From: a virus | Lineage: Duplodnaviria; Heunggongvirae; Uroviricota; Caudoviricetes | DNA length: 11,882 nucleotides | Reading direction: 5' to 3' (one strand) | Virus record (IMG/VR): IMGVR_UViG_2548876958_000016 | Part shown: one piece after another, positions 1,664 through 11,882 of the stretch | Layout of the letters: the number at the start of each line of letters is the position of its first letter | Numbering within the stretch: position 1 is the stretch's first letter | Program-made: the position numbers and the translations under genes | Notes under the pieces: model-generated | The model's input: only the letters and a program-made list of their open reading frames with translations | Database searches by the model: none | What the model was told of the DNA's origin: nothing

Positions 1664-1837
1664 TTATCCTTTGGGTTCTATGCCGCGTTGCTGTAATTCT
1701 TTGCGGAGAACGCGTTTAATCCAAGTGGCTAAAGATGTGTCGCCATCGGCCTTAGCTGCTTCTTCTAGCTGCGCTCTGAAGTCTTCCGGTAATCGCATTT
1801 GGTATGGAGGCGAACGTTTTTCTAATGGTGTTGACAT
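1664..1837 (-). CDS. Ribbon-helix-helix (Arc/MetJ/CopG-like) repressor, 57 aa; below the 60-aa cut-off of the ORF track
   Basis: Hand translation of the minus strand gives MSTPLEKRSPPYQMRLPEDFRAQLEEAAKADGDTSLATWIKRVLRKELQQRGIEPKG. It has the RHH layout: N-terminal beta-strand (MRLPED), helix A (FRAQLEEAAKADG), helix B (SLATWIKRVLRKEL). SD AAGGG lies 8 nt upstream of the ATG. The gene is divergent from the replication operon and its start abuts palindromic operators. Confidence 0.75.
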   Translation of the reverse strand: MSTPLEKRSPPYQMRLPEDFRAQLEEAAKADGDTSLATWIKRVLRKELQQRGIEPKG

Positions 1838-1905
1838 GGTAATTACCCTTCATTACTATACCTACATGGTAATTACCATTGTACTTGCCATTACACAAAA
1901 ATCAA
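1831..1905. promoter_or_regulatory. Back-to-back divergent promoters overlaid by two palindromic operators
   Basis: Rightward promoter: -35 TTGACA (1831-1836), 17-bp spacer, -10 TACTAT (1854-1859). Leftward promoter (minus strand): -35 TTGATT (1905-1900), 16-bp spacer, -10 TACAAT (1883-1878). ACATGGTAATTACC occurs at 1834-1847 and 1864-1877, 30 bp apart; the second copy is a perfect 14-bp palindrome ATGGTAATTACCAT (1866-1879). The operators cover the rightward spacer and +1 region and the leftward -10. Confidence 0.55.
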
Positions 1906-3059: not shown

Positions 3060-3359
3060 ATGAAACTTAAATATTCTGGCTTAACTGCCAGTGGCAACAC
3101 TCACCCTAAATTTACGCGCGGTGATATTTACCGCGACCAGTACGGCGGCACGGTAATGATTAAGGACGTGGAAGAACGGCGCGTAACCTACCGCCGTGAA
3201 GGTTACGAATATGATTGCGTGATGCCTGTTTATCAGTTCCGGCGTGATTTTTCTCTGGTACAGACCGCGCCGCATAACGTGCCCACCAGCAACGCCAGGG
3301 CACGGGCAAACATCCAGAAGCTGAAAACCATGGTTAACGGATTCAGGGGCAAGAAATGA
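3060..3359 (+). CDS. Hypothetical protein (99 aa)
   Basis: GGAGA SD upstream of ATG 3060; its stop overlaps the helicase start (ATGA at 3356-3359). Translation MKLKYSGLTASGNTHPKFTRGDIYRDQYGGTVMIKDVEERR... No family recognised. Confidence 0.65.
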   Translation: MKLKYSGLTASGNTHPKFTRGDIYRDQYGGTVMIKDVEERRVTYRREGYEYDCVMPVYQFRRDFSLVQTAPHNVPTSNARARANIQKLKTMVNGFRGKK

Positions 3360-4756
3360 AAAGCGCACCGAACTTAAAAAAACAGCCTTACGACAAGATG
3401 ACCGAAGTCATTATTTTTGCGGGTAGTGATGCCTGGGCACATGCGAAACAGTGGCAGGAACAGGACGGGCGACTGGCTGGCGATAATGTGCCTCCCGTTG
3501 TGCTGGCTGATGATCAACTGGATGAACTGGCAGACCTGAGAATCATCGACGAGGGGCGCTATTGTGTCCGGCTGTACAAGGCAGGCCACATCAGGCCATC
3601 AAATATTAATGCCATTGCGCACAAGCTGGCGGCGGCGGGTGTAACTGATGCGAATTATTACCCCGAAGGGATGCACAGCCATATGCGGGAGAACTGGCGC
3701 GAATACCTGGAACGGGTGCGCGGGAAAGAGCCGGCGGAAGAAAAAAACCACCAGCGAAAAACCACGCTACCGATGAGCGTTGGATCTACCGGATACGACA
3801 CGCAACTGGATTACGTGGTTAAGGGGATTATTCCGGCGGTATCGCTATGCAGCATATACGGGGCTAGCGGGTCCTATAAATCATTCCTTGCCGGATCGTG
3901 GGCGTGCCATGTTGCCACTGGTCGCCAGTGGGGAGGCCGCAGGGTTGCACATGGTGCGGTTCTCTATGTGGTTGGTGAAGGCGGTATAGGTGTTCCGCGT
4001 CGTGTAAAAGCCTGGGAGGTTGTGCACGATGAGCAGGTGAAAAATCTGTATCTGGTAAACCGCCCCATCTTTCCGGCTGCCCCGCTTGATGTTGATGAAA
4101 TGGTTATCGCTGCCCGTCAGGTGGAGCGGGAAACGGGTAAACCTGTACGCATGATTATTCTGGATACGCTGGCGCGTTGCTTTGGTGGGAATGATGAAAA
4201 TGATTCCCGTGATATGGGGGCGTTTATCCGTGGTTGTGACGAACTGAAACGACGCACAGGGGCCACGGTGCTGGTGGTTCACCATTCCGGCAAGGATGAG
4301 ACGAAAGGCGCGCGCGGTTCCAGTGCATTTCGTGCTTCGCTGGATGCTGAATACCGGATACGCAGGGAGGACGCAGGAAGCGAAGCGCTGGTTATCTCAT
4401 GCACCAAAATGAAGGACGCGGAGGAACTCAAAGAAGCCGCATATGACTTACGCGTGGTGGAGCTTTTTACCGACGCTGACGGTGAATTAATCACGTCGCT
4501 GGTGGTGGTGGATGATCCGCGCCCTCCTGTTGAACTGGAGCGCATCGAGGAGGCAGGGAACAAGACGGAAAACCATACCGCGCTATGGGGGTGCATCCGT
4601 TCACGCACACAGAACGGCGACAAGTGCACGATCCCGCTGTTACGTGATGACATGAAAAAGCTGGGGTATGAAATGAAAAACTTCCGGCGCTGGCTGTACA
4701 AGCTGGAAAAAGATGGGGTTATTCGTATCGATGGGGATGATGTAGCGCCGCTATAA
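3356..4756 (+). CDS. Replication initiator/helicase, RecA-fold AAA ATPase (RepA/DnaB-like, PICI Rep-type), 466 aa
   Basis: Walker A GASGSYKS (within IYGASGSYKSFLAG), Walker B-like hhhhD (RMIILDTLARCFGG) and a VLVVHHSGKD motif typical of RepA/DnaB-family helicase domains. N-terminal ~150 aa is a separate domain, possibly origin-binding. Last gene of a coupled operon and immediately followed by an iteron array. Confidence 0.85.
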   Translation: MKSAPNLKKQPYDKMTEVIIFAGSDAWAHAKQWQEQDGRLAGDNVPPVVLADDQLDELADLRIIDEGRYCVRLYKAGHIRPSNINAIAHKLAAAGVTDANYYPEGMHSHMRENWREYLERVRGKEPAEEKNHQRKTTLPMSVGSTGYDTQLDYVVKGIIPAVSLCSIYGASGSYKSFLAGSWACHVATGRQWGGRRVAHGAVLYVVGEGGIGVPRRVKAWEVVHDEQVKNLYLVNRPIFPAAPLDVDEMVIAARQVERETGKPVRMIILDTLARCFGGNDENDSRDMGAFIRGCDELKRRTGATVLVVHHSGKDETKGARGSSAFRASLDAEYRIRREDAGSEALVISCTKMKDAEELKEAAYDLRVVELFTDADGELITSLVVVDDPRPPVELERIEEAGNKTENHTALWGCIRSRTQNGDKCTIPLLRDDMKKLGYEMKNFRRWLYKLEKDGVIRIDGDDVAPL

Positions 4757-4956: not shown

Positions 4957-5208
4957 ATGACCCAAAAACGCAGAGACAGAACAGAGCCAAAATATAAAGC
5001 GTTAGACATGACTGAGCACACCTTAAAGGTGGCAATCAGAACGATAGACCGCCACACGCGGGAAGGATACGCGAAGGAACATCCCGACCTGATAAGCGCA
5101 TTCATGACCACGGCGGCGGCAAACTTTGCCACGCTGACAGAACGGGAGATTGCCGAAGCGGAACAGGTAACAACCATCAACGTTAAAACCGGAGAGGTGG
5201 AATTATGA
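4957..5208 (+). CDS. Hypothetical protein (~83 aa; track ORF starts at 4927 inside the iterons)
   Basis: ATG 4957 is the first in-frame start after the iterons; GAGG at 4943-4946 could serve as SD. The stop overlaps the ssb start (ATGA 5205-5208). Translation MTQKRRDRTEPKYKALDMTEHTLKVAIRTIDRHTREGYAKEHPDLISAF... An alternative start is ATG 5008. Confidence 0.5.
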   Translation: MTQKRRDRTEPKYKALDMTEHTLKVAIRTIDRHTREGYAKEHPDLISAFMTTAAANFATLTEREIAEAEQVTTINVKTGEVEL

Positions 5209-5615
5209 CGGCACAGATAGCCGCTTACGGGCGGCTGGTGGACGACCCGCAGGTAAAACAGACCAGCAAGGGCACACCGATGACGCTGGCGCGTATGGCG
5301 GTATCTTTGCCATGCAGCCAGGCACAGGACGGACAGGCGACGTTATGGTTATCGGTCATCGCATTTGGCAAACAGGCCGACTTCCTGGCTAAACATCAAA
5401 AAGGCGATGTTGCCAGCGTATCCGGCACGATGCAGGTAAGCCAGTGGACCGGACAGAACGGAGAAACGCGGCAGGGCTGGCAGGTTATCGCAGACAGCGT
5501 AATCAGTGCCCGCGCGGCACGTCCAGGCGGGAACAGACGCAAAACCACAGGCACACAGGGTAATCAGCCACCAGCGGGAGGCGATGACCCTTACGGTGAT
5601 GATATTTCGTTCTGA
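5205..5615 (+). CDS. ssb: Single-stranded DNA-binding protein (SSB-like OB-fold), 136 aa
   Basis: SD GGAGAGGTGG with 4-nt spacer. N-terminal GRLVDDPQV...LWLSVIAFGKQADFLAKHQKGDVASVSGTMQVSQWTGQNGETRQGWQVIAD follows the SSB OB-fold pattern (compare E. coli SSB GNLGQDPEV...[50 protein letters not shown]). A Gly/Pro-rich linker and acidic tail DDPYGDDISF resemble the canonical DFDDDIPF tail. Confidence 0.75.
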   Translation: MTAQIAAYGRLVDDPQVKQTSKGTPMTLARMAVSLPCSQAQDGQATLWLSVIAFGKQADFLAKHQKGDVASVSGTMQVSQWTGQNGETRQGWQVIADSVISARAARPGGNRRKTTGTQGNQPPAGGDDPYGDDISF

Positions 5616-5625
5616 GGGGGTGACG

Positions 5626-5898
5626 ATGGTACATGACCGCATAGCGGAGGAACTGGAGGCGAAAGGCTTTTACCGGAGGGCGGCGGCGCGATGGGGTGAA
5701 GTCATGCAGCTGGTGGAGACAGACAAGGAACGGCATCACATCACGATGCGACGGCTGGAATGTTCAAGGAAGGCACAGAGGGCACCGGAGCCGCCGGATA
5801 ATTTCGGAGACCTGAAAAAGGCAGTCGATCGCACTTATGCCGAAATGGGTATAGATGGTGCTGGTGATGAAATATGGCGCAATTACCAGGACAGCTAA
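5626..5898 (+). CDS. PerC-family transcriptional regulator-like protein (90 aa)
   Basis: SD GAGGGGG (5614-5620), 5-nt spacer, ATG 5626. Translation MVHDRIAEELEAKGFYRRAAARWGEVMQLVETDKERHHITMRRLECSRKAQ... matches the PerC-like motif (AEELEAKG-Y/W-RRAA-RW) as I recall it from prophage PerC homologues. The longer 5506 ORF in the track is an upstream extension overlapping ssb in another frame. Confidence 0.7.
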   Translation: MVHDRIAEELEAKGFYRRAAARWGEVMQLVETDKERHHITMRRLECSRKAQRAPEPPDNFGDLKKAVDRTYAEMGIDGAGDEIWRNYQDS

Positions 5899-5904
5899 TC
5901 AAAC

Positions 5905-5928
5905 AGCCGGAGAAATCCGGCTTTTTTT
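5905..5928 (+). terminator. Intrinsic terminator (copy 1 of a thrice-repeated GNRA-loop hairpin)
   Basis: AGCCGGA (5905-5911), loop GAAA, TCCGGCT (5916-5922), then a T-run ending at 5928; 6 nt after the perC-like stop. Confidence 0.7.
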
Positions 5929-6024
5929 GCACCAGTTGAAACGGTATGGCGCATTACCGGGTTTTCGTCACGGTCAGGCATAGTTACTATCTGAAACAAA
6001 CAGACACAACAGAGGAAAAAAACA

Positions 6025-6249
6025 ATGCCGATGAAATTTGATGAGATATTAAAACAGCGTGATAAATACCATGCTGACAACATGGAGACGATGAGCATCA
6101 ATGATTACCGCGCATTCCTGGAGACGGGCGCACTGATTGAAAAGGATCAGCATGGTTTTGTGAGATGTGCTCTATCCGGTGAAATGCTGGCGGTAAATCC
6201 TGAACAGATAGATGCATTGATAGAATTTCTGAAAGAGATCAGAGACTGA
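6025..6249 (+). CDS. Hypothetical protein (74 aa), monocistronic between terminators
   Basis: SD AGAGGA (6011-6016), 8-nt spacer, ATG 6025. Translation MPMKFDEILKQRDKYHADNMETMSINDYRAFLETGALIEKDQHGFVRCALSGEMLAVNPEQIDALIEFLKEIRD. No family recognised. Confidence 0.55.
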   Translation: MPMKFDEILKQRDKYHADNMETMSINDYRAFLETGALIEKDQHGFVRCALSGEMLAVNPEQIDALIEFLKEIRD

Positions 6250-6268
6250 GCCAGCACACAGCACACAT

Positions 6269-6291
6269 AGCCGGAGCAATCCGGCTTTTTT
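6269..6291 (+). terminator. Intrinsic terminator (copy 2 of the repeated hairpin)
   Basis: AGCCGGA (6269-6275), loop GCAA, TCCGGCT (6280-6286), T-run to 6291. Confidence 0.7.
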
Positions 6292-6300
6292 GCGCCCAAA

Positions 6301-6339
6301 AAAAGCCCGATAAGGTCAGAGGGTTCTTATCGGGCTTTT
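6301..6339. terminator. Bidirectional terminator-like hairpin (14-bp perfect stem)
   Basis: AAAAGCCCGATAAG (6301-6314) pairs perfectly with CTTATCGGGCTTTT (6326-6339) across an 11-nt loop. The A-run on one side and T-run on the other make it usable from either strand. Sits in tandem after copy 2. Confidence 0.6.
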
Positions 6340-6416
6340 GCATATGAGGTTTTTGGATGCACTGGCGTTCGTGATCGAGATAATCATTTCATAATTTGCA
6401 ACATAACTAAATATCA

Positions 6417-6477
6417 TTGCATAAAATGCAATTCTTATTATAATCAGGACTGGATAAACATCCAGTCCTGATTTTTT
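6417..6477 (+). promoter_or_regulatory. Candidate late (capsid-operon) promoter with a promoter-proximal hairpin plus T-run
   Basis: Perfect -10 TATAAT (6439-6444) with possible -35 TTGCAT (6417-6422, 16-bp spacer). An 11-bp inverted repeat TCAGGACTGGA/TCCAGTCCTGA (6443-6453 and 6460-6470) followed by TTTTTTT (6471-6477) lies between the -10 and the first late gene (ATG 6501). Confidence 0.45.
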
Positions 6478-6500
6478 TAGTCGAAGAGGAATTTCTTACT

Positions 6501-6707
6501 ATGGCTGAAGAGAAAAAAGGCGGTGTTTCGGTGTACATAAGCCCCGAAATCGTGGAGGTGCTCAAGCAGCGCCACAAAAAAAACTATGAAGCTGGCGTTG
6601 CGGCTGGACTGGATCCGCTGATGACGCCGGAGCCGTCGATAGGTTCACTTGTACGCTCTTATTTACTTGCGGCGCTTGGGATGCATAAAAATTATGGGGG
6701 TGAATAA
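6501..6707 (+). CDS. Small protein (68 aa), first gene of the capsid operon; possible RHH/CopG-like fold
   Basis: Translation MAEEKKGGVSVYISPEIVEVLKQRHKKNYEAGVAAGLDPLMTPEPSIGSLVRSYLLAALG...: a beta-strand (VSVYIS) followed by two helices resembles a ribbon-helix-helix, but this is tentative. Stop overlaps the capsid start (TAATG at 6705-6709). Confidence 0.5.
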   Translation: MAEEKKGGVSVYISPEIVEVLKQRHKKNYEAGVAAGLDPLMTPEPSIGSLVRSYLLAALGMHKNYGGE

Positions 6708-7762
6708 TGGCAGGCAAAGCAACGGCACTTAACACTAACCAGCTTTTCATGTACCTGAATCGCGGGGATATTGCGGATTTTAAATTCAGCCCTCTGTTTA
6801 CCACGCTGTTTTTCCCGAACGTGGCGACATTCAACACGCAGGACATCATGTTAGATAACCTGGATATTGAAGAAGTCACTATGTCGGCGTTTTGTTCGCC
6901 TATGGTTGGCAGCCAGGTTCAGCGCGATAAAGGGTACGAAACCAGCATTATCCGCCCTGGCTACATGAAGCCAAAACACGAAATCGATCCATTAAAAACA
7001 ATAATGCGCATGGCTGGAGAAGATCCGGCACAGCTTAACGATCCTACCTACCGCCGTATGCGCCTGATTACTGGCAACATGCGCCGCCAGATAAACGCCA
7101 TTAAGGCACGCGTTGAATGGCTGGCGGTGAATGCGGTAACGACCGGAAAAAACATCATTGAGGGCGAAGGCATAGAACGCTATGAAATCGACTGGAAGAT
7201 ACCGGAAAAAAACATCATAGAGCAGGCCGACGGTAAAAAATGGTCTGAGCAGGATAAAGACATACACGACCCAATATATGACATTGAACTATACGCAGAT
7301 CAGGCAGGTTGCCCCGCCAACGTCATGATTATGGGCGTTGATGTATGGCGCATGTTACGCAGCTTTAAAAAATTCCGTGAACTGTACGATCTCTCCCGTG
7401 GTTCAGAATCCGCCGCAGAGCTGGCATGTAAAAACCTGGGCGAAGTGGTGAGCTTTAAAGGCTATCTTGGTGATCTGGCCCTTATCGTCTATTCCGGCAA
7501 ATACACTGACAGCGACGGCACAGAAAAATATTTCCTTGAGCCTGATTTGCTTGTCCTGGGCAACACCAACAATAAAGGGCTGGTGGCCTATGGTGCGATT
7601 ATGGATCAGGACGCAGTAAGAACGGGGGCAACGCAAAACATGTACTACCCGAAAAACTGGATTGAGGACGGAGATCCGGCGATTGAGTACGTGCAGACGC
7701 ACAGCGCACCGCAGCCGGTTCCGGCAGATATTCGCAAATTTGTTACTGTCAAAATTGCTTAA
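6707..7762 (+). CDS. Major capsid protein, lambda gpE family (351 aa)
   Basis: SD GGGGG 6 nt upstream. Extended similarity to lambda E as I recall it: FKFSPLFTTLFF (lambda FKFDPLFLRLFF), RPGYMKPKHEIDP (TPGYVKPKHEVNP), DPTYRRMRLI (DPAYRRRRII), VSFKGYLGDLALIVYSGKY (VSYKGMYGDVAIVVYSGQY), LGNTNNKGLVAYGAIMDQDA (LGNTQARGLRTYGCIQDADA), YPKNWIEDGDPA (YPKNWVTTGDPA); length is close to lambda E (341 aa). Confidence 0.9.
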   Translation: MAGKATALNTNQLFMYLNRGDIADFKFSPLFTTLFFPNVATFNTQDIMLDNLDIEEVTMSAFCSPMVGSQVQRDKGYETSIIRPGYMKPKHEIDPLKTIMRMAGEDPAQLNDPTYRRMRLITGNMRRQINAIKARVEWLAVNAVTTGKNIIEGEGIERYEIDWKIPEKNIIEQADGKKWSEQDKDIHDPIYDIELYADQAGCPANVMIMGVDVWRMLRSFKKFRELYDLSRGSESAAELACKNLGEVVSFKGYLGDLALIVYSGKYTDSDGTEKYFLEPDLLVLGNTNNKGLVAYGAIMDQDAVRTGATQNMYYPKNWIEDGDPAIEYVQTHSAPQPVPADIRKFVTVKIA

Positions 7763-7773
7763 CGGGGGATTCT

Positions 7774-8109
7774 ATGGACACTCCATACATTGAGTTATTT
7801 GCAGGCAGTCAGCAGGTCGCCACGACGCTGGTACATTTTGCCGCTGATGCTGGCGTTATTCAGGAATTTACCCCGCTGATGCTGGCGGACAATGGCGAGT
7901 TTAAGCCGTGGGATGGTCAGGAATCTGGCAAGGCTGTTTATCTGACTTCGTATCCTGTGGACACGTCAAAGCAGAAATCAGCACAGTGTTACAAGACGGG
8001 GATATTCAATATTGCCGCCGTTAACTGGCCTGAGAGCGTCGACACCGATGCGAAAAAATGCGCCGCCTTTGCGGGTTCCGGCGTATCCGTTCAGCCGCTG
8101 GCCCGATAA
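7774..8109 (+). CDS. Head decoration protein, lambda gpD family (111 aa)
   Basis: SD GGGGGA upstream. TPLMLADNGEFKPWDGQ (lambda TPLMLDTSSRKLVAWDG), YKTGIFNIAAVNWPE (YKSGTFRYEDVLWPE), KKCAAFAGSGVSV (KKRTAFAGTAISIV); length matches gpD (110 aa). Gene order is E then D, the reverse of lambda. Confidence 0.85.
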   Translation: MDTPYIELFAGSQQVATTLVHFAADAGVIQEFTPLMLADNGEFKPWDGQESGKAVYLTSYPVDTSKQKSAQCYKTGIFNIAAVNWPESVDTDAKKCAAFAGSGVSVQPLAR

Positions 8110-8121
8110 GCAGGGGGAACG

Positions 8122-8535
8122 ATGGCAACGAATGAAAGCATCATGACGCTACCGCTGGCGAGTAAATTTAAAGCCGAAGCGCGGGCAATGGCTGACAGAG
8201 GTTTATCAACCTATGAGGCCGTATATCAACTAAACAAACTGGAAGAGCAGGACAAGCCGCGCGCTGATGCGATTATGGCGCTTCATGAGCATAAAGACTA
8301 TCAGCCGCTGTTACGTGCAATGGCAAACGTGCCATGTATTAGCGTCGATAATGCTCGTGAAATCCTGAACATGACCATAGAGCAGGAGCGCCCAAAGGTT
8401 GCACCAGAGCTTACCGCAGCCTTTGAAAACTTTATGGACATGCACAGCCCGCAAGCCGTATCAGCTGGCATGGCATACGATGGCAGAAACCAGGGCGATG
8501 ACGGCGACATCGATCGCATACTGAAAACCATCTGA
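8122..8535 (+). CDS. Hypothetical protein (137 aa), last gene of the capsid operon
   Basis: SD AGGGGGA (8112-8118), ATG 8122. Translation MATNESIMTLPLASKFKAEARAMADRGLSTYEAVYQLNKLEEQDKPRADAIMALHEHKDYQPLL... No family recognised. Its position after the capsid and decoration genes suggests a morphogenesis or packaging accessory role. Confidence 0.6.
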   Translation: MATNESIMTLPLASKFKAEARAMADRGLSTYEAVYQLNKLEEQDKPRADAIMALHEHKDYQPLLRAMANVPCISVDNAREILNMTIEQERPKVAPELTAAFENFMDMHSPQAVSAGMAYDGRNQGDDGDIDRILKTI

Positions 8536-8540
8536 GACAA

Positions 8541-8564
8541 GGCCGGAGAAATCCGGCTTTTTTT
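8541..8564 (+). terminator. Intrinsic terminator (copy 3 of the repeated hairpin)
   Basis: GCCGGA (8542-8547), loop GAAA, TCCGGC (8552-8557), T-run 8558-8564; almost base-for-base identical to copy 1. A second hairpin ACGGGTCC/GGACCCGT (8566-8573 and 8584-8591) follows and overlaps the start of cos. Confidence 0.7.
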
Positions 8565-8581
8565 ACGGGTCCTTTCCGGCA

Positions 8582-8640
8582 TATGGACCCGTTACGGGGC
8601 GGCGACCTCGCGGTTTTTCGCTATTTATGAGCCTTTTCAG
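8582..8640 (+). other. cos site 1: lambda-type cosN with a divergent cosB-side flank, oriented toward the small terminase gene
   Basis: GTTACGGGGCGGCGACCTCGCGGTTTTTCGCTATTTATGA (8591-8630) matches, with one mismatch, my recollection of the lambda cohesive-end region (GGGCGGCGACCT then CGCGGGTTTTCGCTATTTATGA); the 12-nt cohesive-end sequence sits at 8597-8608. After TTTATGA the sequence diverges from lambda cosB. Confidence 0.75.
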
Positions 8641-8702
8641 GGGGGTGGTGGTGGTTTTGTTGTTTGCTCTATCTTTATGAATGAAAAGGGAAAGATGCAA
8701 AC

Positions 8703-8740
8703 AATACACCAACCTGAAGCAGTAATTAAGTTGGTGTATT
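8703..8740. repeat. 11-bp inverted repeat immediately upstream of the small terminase start codon
   Basis: AATACACCAAC (8703-8713) and GTTGGTGTATT (8730-8740) separated by a 16-nt loop, ending 1 nt before ATG 8742. Candidate island-specific TerS-binding or translational control element. Confidence 0.45.
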
Positions 8741-8741
8741 A

Positions 8742-9284
8742 ATGAAATCGCACCTGATGAACAAAAAAAACATGGCGAAAAGCTGCCGTGTAAGTGCGAC
8801 AGCGTTCGACAAGTGGGGAGTGACTCCCGTTGAACGTAAAGGCCGTGAGGCGTTTTACGATGTTGCCAGCGTGATAGACAATAGGGTTAACAATGCAATT
8901 AGCCAGCTTACAAACGACAAAGGCGATATTGATGATGATGAACTCTTACGAGTCAGGATCAGATTACTGACAGCACAGGCGGAGGCGCAGGAACTTAAAA
9001 ACGAGCGCGATCGCGGTGACGTGATTGATACTGAGTTTTGCCTGTACGCGCTTTCAAAGCTGGCGAGTCAGATTTCATCAATCATGGACAGCCTCCCGCT
9101 TACTATGCAAAGGAGCTTCCCACAGATTACCCACGCCATGCTGGATAGGCTTAAAAGGGAAGTGGTTAAAGCCTGTAATGCCAGTGCCAGAGTTGCCGAC
9201 AACCTCCCACAGATACTGGCTGATTACTTGAAAGAAACAACCGGAAACGTACCGGAAAAGTTGCTACAGAAGAAAGGCGAGTAA
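8742..9284 (+). CDS. Terminase small subunit, lambda Nu1 family (180 aa; true start may be ATG 8757)
   Basis: Strong similarity to lambda Nu1 as recalled: LLTAQAEAQELKNERDRGDVIDTEFCLYALSKLASQISSIMDSLPLTMQRSFP (lambda LTRAQADAQELKNARDSAEVVETAFCTFVLSRIAGEIASILDGLPLSVQRRFP) and N-terminal MNKKNMAKS...FDKW (lambda MEVNKKQLADIFGASIRTIQNW). The C-terminal region that interacts with the large subunit in lambda looks conserved; the N-terminal DNA-recognition region is more diverged. Confidence 0.85.
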   Translation: MKSHLMNKKNMAKSCRVSATAFDKWGVTPVERKGREAFYDVASVIDNRVNNAISQLTNDKGDIDDDELLRVRIRLLTAQAEAQELKNERDRGDVIDTEFCLYALSKLASQISSIMDSLPLTMQRSFPQITHAMLDRLKREVVKACNASARVADNLPQILADYLKETTGNVPEKLLQKKGE

Positions 9285-9299
9285 CAGACGCGCAATTAT

Positions 9300-9489
9300 T
9301 GAACAAAACTGAGAAACGACATGAAAGCGTCATAAATCGCCATTTTAGATGATTACCGTGTCGTTTCTTTTTATTGTGTATCTATTTAAAAACAAATAGT
9401 TATGTTCGAGAAGTACCGACATGCTTTTTCCAGAAAAATTTTCATAAACAGATAAAAACCGCGAGGTCGCCGCCCCGTAACGGGCCATA
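9300..9489 (-). other. cos site 2: inverted lambda-like cos (cosN plus cosB-like flank) on the minus strand, pointing back toward terS
   Basis: Reverse complement of 9454-9489 equals the site-1 core. Read on the minus strand it continues GGGCGGCGACCTCGCGGTTTTTATCTGTTTATGAAAATTTTTCTGG..., then CATAACTATTTGTTTTTAAATAGATAC, AAAAGAAACGACA and GTCGTTTCTC. These resemble lambda TTTATGAAAATTTTCCGG, the I1-region CATAACTTAATGTTTTTATTTAAAATAC and R-site-like GTCGTTTCC elements, from memory. Confidence 0.75.
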
Positions 9490-9539
9490 ATTCCAGGAAG
9501 GACCCGACGACACCAGACTATCAGAGCGATGGGGGCACA

Positions 9540-9821
9540 ATGACAGAAGCCGAACTACTGGGATTAATCCGCCGCGTCGCCGGAATCAGCCAGCAGCATG
9601 ACGAACAGGCCACACAGCCGGACAGCGTGACCGCTGAAAATTATGTGCGTGTTGTAGCGGAAGTGATGCGCCGTGATGGTATAGAACTTAATGGCGTTGA
9701 TATGCGCAACATACGGAACCGCGTTCTTGAAATGCTGGCCTACAATCGCCGCGTTGAACTGTATCGGGAGAAAGAAAAAATAACGTACCACTGGAAGAAG
9801 CCGGAATGGCTGCGGCGGTAA
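9540..9821 (+). CDS. Hypothetical protein (93 aa) in the terminal accessory position of the island
   Basis: SD GGGGG (9531-9535), 4-nt spacer. Translation MTEAELLGLIRRVAGISQQHDEQATQPDSVTAENYVRVVAEVMRRDGIELNGVDMRNIRNRVLEMLAYNRRVELYREKEKITYHWKKPEWLRR. No family recognised. Confidence 0.5.
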   Translation: MTEAELLGLIRRVAGISQQHDEQATQPDSVTAENYVRVVAEVMRRDGIELNGVDMRNIRNRVLEMLAYNRRVELYREKEKITYHWKKPEWLRR

Positions 9822-10421
9822 CTTGCTGATATTCCCGATAACGCAAAATTGCGCTGGCTACATCCCTCACATCTGAGGACTGTTAACCAGAAGGCCGGAA
9901 TATATTCACAAACTACGAAATTTTCGTAGTTTAATTAATGGTCAGATTAATCGCTAACCCGCTGATATTTTCGGAAACCTCAATTTGAGGAAGTCGGAAG
10001 CGTCACCCTTCATATTCTGAATGGTCATAATGACCACGCAGACCATCAAGGCAACCACAACGAACATCGTTACGGTTGGAGCTTTTACCCCACTGGGGGA
10101 AAGGTATTACGATAATCATAACACCTACCGAACAGGTAAAACCCACCAGCCTGATTAACAGTTAACCGGAAAAAAATCCGGTAGCCCCGTTATGGGGATC
10201 CCCATATCGACATTAACGCCCCTCATGAATTGGTGCGCTTCCCCCTGGAAAGATTACCCGCCTGTATATTTCTTGTGTCTATTTGTTCCACGTTGTTTCA
10301 TACAGTGCACCGAACGGTGTAGTTAATGGTGTAGTCAATTTGCTGTTTTTAGCACTTTTTGCAGTGTGGGTTGTTTAATTAAATCAATGGTTTGCCTTGC
10401 TGTGGTGATAAAAGGACATAT

Positions 10422-11882
10422 TTATTCATCTTTCGGCGCAGAATGCTGGCGACCAAAAATCACCTCCATCCGCGCACCGCCCAGCATGCTCTCTCCGGCG
10501 ACGATTTTACCCTCATATTGCTCGGTGATTTCGCGGGCTACCGCCAGCCCTACACCTTGCCCAGGGCGTAAAGTATCAACCCGTTGACCACGGTCGAAAA
10601 TGACCTCTCGCTTGCTTAATGGAATACCGGGGCCATCATCCTCGACCACAATATAGAGATGCTCGTCGGTTTGCCTTGCAGAAATTTCGACAAACTCGAG
10701 GCAATATTTACAGGCATTATCCAGCACGTTGCCCATCACCTCGACAAAATCGTTCTGCTCACCGACAAAGCTGATCTCTGGCGAAATATCGAGAGAGATA
10801 TTGACCCCTTTGCGTTGATACACTTTGTTCAGCGCTGAGGTGAGATTGTCCAGCAGTGGGGCGACCGGATGCAGCTCGCGGCTGAGCAATGTCCCGCCGC
10901 GCATACTGGCACGATGCAGGTAGTAGCCAATTTGCTGTGAAATGCGGCTGATTTGCTCCAGCATTACCGGCTCAGCATCACTGACGCTCATCTTTTCACT
11001 ACGCAGAGAACGCAGCGTACTTTGCAGCACCGCCAGTGGCGTTTTCAGACTATGGGTCAGGTCGGTGAGCGTCGTACGGTATTTGTCGTAACGTTCGCGT
11101 TCACTTTTTAACAATCGGTTCAGGTTTCGTACCAGACTGGTCAGTTCTCGCGTTGTGGCTGGATTGAGCAATTCGCGGTTATGTTCTTCCAGTTCGCGGA
11201 CTTCTTTTGCCAGGGCTTCGATGGGGCGTAAACTCCACCAGGCGGCGACCCACAGCAGCGGGATCACTAACAGCAGATTGGCTGAGAGCACATAGATAAA
11301 CCAGCTCCAGACCATATAGGAACTTTTTAGCTCCACCGGAATGGTATCCACCACCACAATGGTTAATTTTGGCATCCGCGATGTTGCCGGGTAGACGTTT
11401 ACTGCCACCGAGTGGGTCATCTCCGCGTCGTCATCATCTTCCCGCACTTCCTGCAACTGTTGCTGTATCGAATGATCTCCACTCAGCAAGAGGCTGGTAT
11501 CGTTAACATCCGCTTCAATTTCATGAAAACCATTCGATTTCAGCCAGTCAGGCTGGATCATCTTCATCAGCCAGGGCACGTCACGTTGCGCCCATAAAAG
11601 CTGCCCGTTCTCATCATAAATTAGCGTCATGGTGGGGCTTTGCTTGTCGATATTTTCGGGTAACTCGACATGCAACTTATTGTTTTCCCACTTCGCAAGG
11701 GTATAGAACAGATTGCTCTCGCCACGTAACAGCCGAAACGTAGTTTTATCGAAACTGACGCTATAACCGATCAGCGCGACCATTCCGTAGGCAAGCGAAA
11801 GCACCAGTACTACCGCAGCCGTTGCCAACAGAAAACGTACCCGCAGTGAGAGCGGGAAAAAAAGACGCAGTAATTTTTTCAT
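10422..11882 (-). CDS. phoQ: Sensor histidine kinase PhoQ of the PhoP/PhoQ two-component system (486 aa, complete)
   Basis: Translation begins [40 protein letters not shown]..., has the acidic periplasmic patch EDDDDAE, the phospho-acceptor His box ([12 protein letters not shown]) and G-box motifs (DDGPGIP, GQGVGL). It matches E. coli PhoQ as I recall it in length and sequence. The window ends exactly at its start codon. Confidence 0.97.

Follow-up and report, generated by a model that had tools for sequence, protein, structure and literature searches.

One terminator-like hairpin at three gene ends of an EcCICFT073-type phage satellite and its likely part in gene-block exchange

Why should one short hairpin stand, almost letter for letter, at three gene ends of a single mobile element? 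The question is raised by an 11,882-nucleotide (nt) stretch of DNA, IMG/VR record IMGVR_UViG_2548876958_000016, which is referred to here in its full length as the window. The window is a cos-packaged phage-inducible chromosomal island (PICI) of the EcCICFT073 type. Within 2.7 kb of it, the sequence AGCCGGAG(A/C)AATCCGGCTTTTTT occurs exactly at 5905–5927 and 6269–6291 and, with one mismatch at the 5′ end, at 8541–8563. We consider it likely, with a probability of roughly 0.7, that these copies are Rho-independent terminators, that they represent one gene-end cassette specific to this family of islands and that the cassette offers short homology for recombination of gene blocks.

The original prediction had placed near-identical repeats at these three sites, and this is confirmed, with end coordinates corrected by at most one base. 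A search of the whole window with the pattern AGCCGGAGMAATCCGGCTTTTTT, allowing up to three mismatches, returned three sites only, with 0, 0 and 1 mismatches (G for A at 8541), and no further degenerate copies were found at that threshold. The same three sites were recovered with the 16-nt core. Identity between the copies is far beyond chance: three matches appeared in 0 of 200 dinucleotide-preserving shuffles of the window. Alignment of the copies with 40 nt of flank on each side showed that identity is confined to the hairpin and its T-run, which ends at 5928, 6291 and 8564 in copies 1, 2 and 3. The flanks are unrelated, and the copies are therefore not leftovers of a larger duplication. 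Near the right end of the island, a weaker hairpin at 10164–10185 (AACCGGAAAAAAATCCGGT) has the same CCGGA/TCCGG core and no T-run.

All three copies have the anatomy expected of intrinsic terminators. The stem is GCCGGA/UCCGGC throughout, lengthened by an A–U or G–U pair to 6–7 base pairs (bp). In copy 1 (5905–5928, plus strand), 5906–5911 pairs with 5916–5921, an A–U pair closes the stem, the loop is GAAA and seven T follow. Copy 2 (6269–6291, plus strand) has the same stem with a GCAA loop and six T, and copy 3 (8541–8564, plus strand) has the same stem with a GAAA loop, seven T and G rather than A as its first base. Each loop fits GNRA, in agreement with the initial description. Minimum free energies in 38-nt windows are −13.2 kcal/mol (z = −4.3), −15.9 kcal/mol (z = −4.4) and −16.2 kcal/mol (z = −4.0) for copies 1 to 3, and 0 of 200 shuffled windows folded as stably. 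The U-tract of 7, 6 or 7 abuts the 3′ side of the stem on the plus strand, and the minus strand has no comparable T-run. Copy 1 lies 6 nt past the stop codon (TAA, 5896–5898) of a PerC-family regulator gene (5626–5898, plus strand; Pfam PerC, E = 3.9e-43), whose block it ends. Copy 2 lies 19 nt past the stop (TGA, 6247–6249) of a 74-amino-acid gene without an assigned function (6025–6249, plus strand; PHROG 1957). Copy 3 lies 5 nt past the stop (TGA, 8533–8535) of a scaffold-like gene, the last of the capsid operon (6501–8535, plus strand). A stable GC stem, a U-tract of at least five and a gene end upstream on the same strand are thus combined in every copy, and the earlier proposal of terminators closing three gene blocks fits this anatomy well. 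A consensus terminator scan listed copies 1 and 2 and missed copy 3 because greedy stem extension consumed its T-run, an artefact of the scanner rather than a difference in sequence.

If these are terminators, they may act conditionally. This extension of the terminator reading holds that the copies separate perC, the accessory gene, the capsid operon and the cos/rpp block in the quiescent island, and that a helper antiterminator (Q or N) reads through them after induction and so links late island expression to the helper. Lambdoid phages, which serve as helpers, encode antiterminators. From alpA onward the island genes point in one direction, except for one small leftward open reading frame (ORF) at 1664–1837, and a consensus promoter scan found no promoter-like site adjoining any of the three copies and no good sigma-70 promoter directly past copy 1 or copy 3. 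Islands of this type have been described as transcribed unidirectionally, with capsid and decoration homologues and an AlpA activator (PMC6092414), and a passage in PMC8955417 presents multiple internal terminators as typical of operons with processive antitermination. However, no nut-like or qut-like element was identified in the window, and the capsid operon is preceded by a promoter-like region of its own (6388–6444), seen both in the scan and by eye. The island AlpA is also unrelated to the Pseudomonas AlpA antiterminator, which has a Q-like multi-helix fold (PMC9371919). We find helper-controlled read-through unlikely. As a separate candidate, the island AlpA was considered as a processive antiterminator acting at the hairpins and was rejected. 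It shares only a name with the Pseudomonas protein, and its only sequence match in the Protein Data Bank is 8c3t, an 'AlpA family phage regulatory protein'.

Whether the copies also mark points of exchange was examined in related islands. The segment between copies 1 and 2 (5929–6268, plus strand), which holds the 74-amino-acid gene, is present or absent among relatives as a unit. In two relatives (L203 and L201), the alignments to window 5500–5927 and 6269–6686 overlap on one single 23-nt hairpin. Because both alignments share that hairpin, the 364-bp block is an indel bounded exactly by the direct repeats that copies 1 and 2 form. The best 80 matches anchored on the single-stranded DNA-binding protein gene (ssb), all window-like relatives with no distant families among them, display several arrangements of the same parts. 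The order ssb, perC, hairpin, 74-amino-acid gene, hairpin, second hairpin (D3hp, 6298–6339), capsid was found in 19 loci, and 17 loci have perC followed by a single hairpin, the second hairpin and the capsid genes. In 15 loci perC and the hairpin are followed by other sequence, and 12 have both copies around the 74-amino-acid gene and then other sequence. A further architecture joins ssb directly to a pentaloop form of the hairpin, the second hairpin and the capsid genes.

Flanking sequences and homology endpoints point the same way. Among 120 hairpin-matched IMG/VR contigs, 163 occurrences of the hairpin fall into 19 upstream and 20 downstream flank clusters that are joined combinatorially. 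The end of perC alone is joined to five different downstream sequences, and islands across the family have two or three copies each. Homology ends sharply at copy 1 in 21 of 94 loci (5926–5929) and at copy 2 in 35 of 94 (6269/6270, 6290 or 6299). Breakpoints from megablast against E. coli genomes agree with these endpoints, at query positions 327, 691 and 700, which are 5926, 6290 and 6299 of the window. Endpoint density is 0.64 per nt for the three hairpins pooled, a value that includes 28 artefactual endpoints from a second cos site at copy 3, versus 0.18 per nt in intergenic DNA. These results speak for modular exchange of the accessory genes that lie between ssb and the capsid operon, with the hairpin as its probable site or at least as its marker. 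Short homology is expected to be available there because the same 22–23 bases stand at several block ends.

Several points weigh against this interpretation and against the terminator assignment. We infer termination at the three sites from sequence alone. Protein-anchored samples reach close relatives only, at 74–100% amino-acid identity, and the 120 hairpin-matched contigs were selected for carrying the hairpin. There are about ten junction hot spots in the island, and the hairpins are only some of them. A length of 23 nt is at or below the homology usually held sufficient for efficient exchange mediated by RecA or Red. A junction at a conserved element amid divergent DNA can also seem to lie at the element although the crossover occurred nearby, and we infer exchange inside the hairpin rather than merely beside it. 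Copy 3 is rarely a breakpoint, and 41 loci read straight across it. A cluster of 28 endpoints at 8566 was considered as a copy 3 hot spot and rejected, as 28 of 28 are opposite-orientation alignments to the inverted second cos paralogue. The module shuffling first proposed for all three copies is thus upheld for copies 1 and 2, by the indel, the combinatorial flanks and the endpoints, and not for copy 3, which appears to be a mostly fixed boundary beside cos.

The identity of the copies could instead reflect convergence, with each gene end separately evolving the same near-optimal short terminator, so that identity would say nothing of origin or recombination. The distribution of the hairpin bears on this directly. 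At least 120 unrelated species of many phyla, from Bacteroidota to Bacillota, have the 21-mer GCCGGAGNAATCCGGCTTTTT at one place each. None of these loci resembles the window, and each holds exactly one copy. In 85 of 111 the 21-mer lies at most 80 nt (median 24 nt) past the end of a same-strand ORF, versus 11% of random positions. Such placement argues that the 21-mer is a generic terminator solution reached repeatedly in evolution, and a solution so commonly reached is what convergence needs. Yet elsewhere it is single-copy, whereas here three copies lie close together and islands throughout the family have two or three. Copies 1 and 2 mark the exact limits of the indel block between them, and no other E. 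coli gene end was seen with the hairpin. We judge convergence within the island very unlikely.

In E. coli the hairpin is an accessory feature, apparently restricted to PICIs, and not a core terminator. When 5426 complete genomes were queried with 34 nt around copy 1, representing the GAAA form, 934 gave matches, at a median of one and at most six places each. This count is a lower bound, as copies with a GCAA loop score near the reporting threshold. The whole 3.1-kb region was found in 1533 E. coli genomes by megablast. Two matches were spot-checked and both lie inside PICIs. In one, ssb stands before the hairpin, and a different cos type and a protease/capsid-fusion gene come after it. The second match lies in the island of E. 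coli Nissle (EcN), taken from its gene content to be CFT073-like. The hairpin does not have the many copies in nearly all strains that mark a repetitive extragenic palindrome (REP), a bacterial interspersed mosaic element (BIME) or a ubiquitous host terminator. The possibility raised at the outset, that the motif is simply a widespread host terminator, is therefore answered in two parts: it is not a core E. coli sequence, but its 21-mer does recur far outside the family. In a search of 50,697 phage records, E. coli and lambdoid phages gave nothing longer than an 18-nt partial match. In several O157:H7 RefSeq genomes (NZ_CP038342.1, NZ_CP022279.1), an ORF feature under the perC hairpin is labelled 'trigger factor', which looks like a mis-annotation of a short island ORF.

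Among relatives drawn from IMG/VR contigs by protein homology, blind to the hairpin, conservation is strict. Behind perC, 72 of 78 loci have the stem in its exact form, and the other six have one stem substitution with no compensatory change. After the scaffold-like gene the hairpin is present in 77 of 77 loci, always with a GAAA loop and always touching cosQ, and its T-run, of 6 to 9 T, is the sole variation. Across 59 unique scaffold/hairpin/cos sequences, none of the 16 core columns varies, unlike the coding columns next to them, and the hairpin matches cosN in its degree of conservation. Recurrent variation after perC affects N of GNAA (GAAA, GCAA, GTAA and GGAA), with G, A and A fixed, and a GAAAA pentaloop is present after ssb in one sublineage. 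The family is shallow, with perC DNA in the sampled relatives 82–100% identical to that of the window, and the absence of stem covariation is therefore to be expected. Variation at N of GNRA fits selection on an RNA hairpin better than selection on a DNA palindrome.

Copy 3 has a position of its own. Its T-run ends 2 nt before a cosQ-like GGGTCCT (8567–8573) in a lambda-type cos site (8566–8640, plus strand) that begins where the copy ends, and the cosN is the lambda-type cohesive-end sequence GGGCGGCGACCT at 8597–8608. The predicted contact between copy 3 and this first cos site holds in the window and in all 77 relatives. The hairpin with its T-run stands constantly to the left of cosQ, whichever of at least two cos types follows it and whichever of several genes lies upstream, and 74 of 163 occurrences precede a cos-like flank. 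Lambda-like phages align to the window cos from 8560–8562 onward and have no hairpin there, and the lambda sequence 5′ of cosQ is unrelated to it. Derivation of the hairpin from a helper cos region was considered and rejected, since lambda and its relatives differ 5′ of cosQ and no lambdoid phage record has the hairpin. Read most simply, copy 3 is a terminator that closes the capsid operon (in other islands, the replication block) and would insulate the cos and rpp block. No result of the analysis speaks for a part of the hairpin in packaging.

Contact with cos is also what an element bound by a protein might show. The RNA hairpin, or the GCCGGA/TCCGGC palindrome in DNA, could be recognized by an island or helper factor for processing or antitermination, as an operator or, at copy 3, as an extension of cosQ for packaging. 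Sequence beyond structure is conserved with no compensatory change in the stem, the constant contact with cosQ suits such a role, and in other islands the hairpin precedes a second cos type after ssb. But copies 1 and 2 are far from cos, helper phages package from cos sites without the hairpin, and missing covariation is expected in a family this shallow. A T-run always follows, on one strand only, as a terminator predicts, and the post-perC variation at N of GNAA is predicted by an RNA tetraloop and not by a DNA palindrome. No Rfam family matched in a search of 5500–9900 (E up to 1). The same sequence is an ordinary gene-end hairpin in unrelated bacteria, so no dedicated recognition function is needed. 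The shared recognition function suggested earlier consequently finds no backing, and we give it very little credence.

The terminator and cassette reading can be put as a sequence of events. Each RNA would fold into a GC-rich stem of 6–7 bp with a GNAA tetraloop, followed by 6–7 U. Copy 1 would end transcription past perC, copy 2 past the 74-amino-acid accessory gene, and copy 3 past the capsid operon before cos. The copies would be paralogous, sharing one origin rather than arising independently, and purifying selection on the short stem would keep them unchanged. Standing at several block ends within and between islands, the shared bases would then serve recombination between hairpins, which would delete, insert or swap the intervening blocks. 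Phage recombinases, active during replication of the island with its helper, may take part. A stronger version, in which Gram-negative PICIs have a cassette system and the hairpin is the exchange site dedicated to it, strikes us as quite improbable. There, perC, the 74-amino-acid gene and the hairpin–cos–rpp block would be taken up by satellites and swapped among them during co-replication with the helper, and the hairpin beside cosQ might aid satellite-specific packaging or insulate cos.

Other cos sequences were noted beside these. A second, partial lambda-type cos lies inverted at 9455–9510 (minus strand), with the cosN complement at 9464–9475 and the cosQ complement at 9499–9505. It follows the Nu1-like gene and has no hairpin. 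Its similarity to the first cos starts exactly at 8566, the second base past the T-run of copy 3, and in some relatives the second-cos sequence variant sits at the position of the first. In other islands (L441 1060–1140, which is EcN, and L440 3500–3580), a cos-like site comes immediately after ssb and the hairpin, its cosQ normal and its cosN different (GGGCGGGAGGCG or GGGCGGCGGGGC). After its capsid operon, the EcN island also carries a lambda-type hairpin–cos, and it seems to have two cos types, perhaps for different helpers.

The second hairpin (6298–6339) lies directly after copy 2 and is unrelated to it in sequence. It consists of an A-run, the stem GCCCGATAAG/CTTATCGGGC, a variable 11-nt loop and a T-run, and in relatives the stem is kept while the loop varies. 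The 87-nt stretch around it has minimum free energies of −37.6 kcal/mol on the plus strand and −40.1 kcal/mol on the minus strand. It resembles a bidirectional terminator that would be stronger leftward.

Further possible control elements precede the capsid operon. A perfect 14-bp inverted repeat, AATCAGGACTGGAT-AAAC-ATCCAGTCCTGATT, lies at 6442–6473 and is followed by seven T (region 6439–6480). It begins within a TATAAT (6439–6444), just upstream of the operon ATG at 6501, and its core is CTG-N10-CAG, which is LexA-box-like. In relatives the inner CTGGAT/ATCCAG is fixed and the outer arms change on both sides, as in TAACTGGAT...ATCCAGTTA. The repeat may act on the capsid-operon promoter as an operator, or it may be a leader terminator. 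TTGCA motifs lie upstream of it, ATTTGCAAC at about 6396–6404 and the palindrome ATTGCAT-AAA-ATGCAAT at about 6415–6431 over a possible −35. This region (6396–6431) is kept in the EcN island (L441 1350–1400) and may be a regulator binding site.

The remaining genes place the window among PICIs. It has an integrase, AlpA, a primase/replication gene, cos with a TerS/Rpp-like gene, a small size and unidirectional genes, and Pfam matches are Phage_integrase, Phage_AlpA, AAA_25, SSB, Phage_cap_E, HDPD and Phage_Nu1. In order, these are an integrase fragment (1–609, Phage_integrase), AlpA of 62 amino acids (975–1163, Phage_AlpA), the primase/replication gene (3356–4756, AAA_25) and ssb (5205–5615, SSB). 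The capsid operon starts with a 68-amino-acid gene, followed by a lambda gpE-like major capsid gene (6707–7762, plus strand; Phage_cap_E, 1.7e-49), a gpD-like decoration gene (7774–8109, plus strand; HDPD, 1.3e-17) and the scaffold-like gene (8122–8535, plus strand; PHROG 1999), which also matches, less strongly, the C-terminal part of a head maturation protease family. The Nu1-like gene, of the small-terminase/Rpp type, lies at 8742–9284 (Phage_Nu1). Beside the island, at 10422–11882 on the minus strand, is a gene that we take to be phoQ from its translation, read by eye.

Two sets of short repeats lie outside these blocks. The 13-mer CATGGTAATTACC occurs twice, 19 nt apart (1840–1880), and holds the perfect palindrome GGTAATTACC. 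The pair is directly upstream of the sole leftward ORF of the island proper (1664–1837, 57 amino acids), overlaps the best promoter-like site of the window (1831–1859) and looks like an operator pair at a divergent control region. Short repeats of the GAACAA/GTGGAACAAC type lie just past the integrase fragment (655–700), with a related TTGTTCCACGTTGTTTCA near the right end (10268–10300). In other islands the same type of sequence, reverse complemented, stands directly after the perC hairpin (flank cluster D5). These repeats may be recombination arm or attachment-site sequences.

Islands of this type carry virulence regulators and interfere with helper phages, and PerC/Pch homologues activate the LEE (locus of enterocyte effacement) pathogenicity island in some strains (PMC6092414). 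The reused terminator would mark points where cargo is gained or lost and fix the left edge of the cos packaging block. It could serve as a module landmark in satellite annotation, as a predicted hot spot of mosaic evolution and as a natural insulated insertion point in engineered PICI delivery vehicles. In a literature search, no paper was found that holds the 16-mer on either strand or that combines EcCICFT073 with RNA-seq, and the word 'terminator' is absent from the text of PMC6092414 and PMC9026076.

How does the hairpin compare with known systems? The island as a whole resembles the described EcCICFT073-type cos PICIs (Fillol-Salom et al. 2018, PMC6092414; Fillol-Salom et al. 2019, PMC6739421; PMC9026076), the latter two treating the cos/Rpp system. 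It shares with them the integrase, AlpA, the primase/replication gene and gpE- and gpD-like genes, as well as a lambda-like cosQ/cosN, a Nu1-like (Rpp/TerS-type) gene and one direction of transcription. The closest described analogue of the hairpin cassette appears to be the promoter-early stem-loop (PeSL) of T4-like phages (Arbiol et al. 2010, PMC2839356; Comeau et al. 2014, PMC4122927). Both are short conserved motifs with a terminator stem-loop, repeated at the borders of small accessory blocks. In both, copies of the motif delimit indels or replacements that distinguish related genomes, as with the 364-bp block that is absent from L203 and L201 where a single hairpin is kept, and this is read as recombination at the motif driving modular shuffling. 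PeSL is composite, a strong sigma-70-like early promoter with a stem-loop, whereas the hairpin here is a putative terminator only, with no adjoining promoter. PeSL has dozens of copies in hyperplastic regions of lytic myoviruses, and the hairpin one to three per satellite of about 10 kb. Mini-circle products of PeSL were shown physically, while exchange at the hairpin is supported here by comparing genomes.

Lambdoid phages offer a second parallel. Juhala et al. in 2000 and Clark et al. in 2001 are said to have described morons and boundary sequences, accessory genes with their own terminator and conserved boundaries proposed as recombination points. That organization belongs to phages and uses other sequences, whereas the hairpin belongs to satellites and is absent from lambdoid phage records. 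Canonical Rho-independent terminators of E. coli with GNRA or UUCG tetraloops have a GC stem abutting a U-tract just past a stop codon. The hairpin has the same GC-rich stem base against the U-tract, stable tetraloop and position. Canonical terminators at non-homologous genes differ in sequence, however, while here one sequence stands at three or more kinds of gene end. The design of the hairpin looks ordinary. The unusual part is the repeated use of a single sequence, under strict conservation, as the gene-end cassette of a satellite family. It is a real, if fairly ordinary, feature of mosaic mobile elements that brings no new mechanism and extends a principle from T4-like phages to phage satellites.

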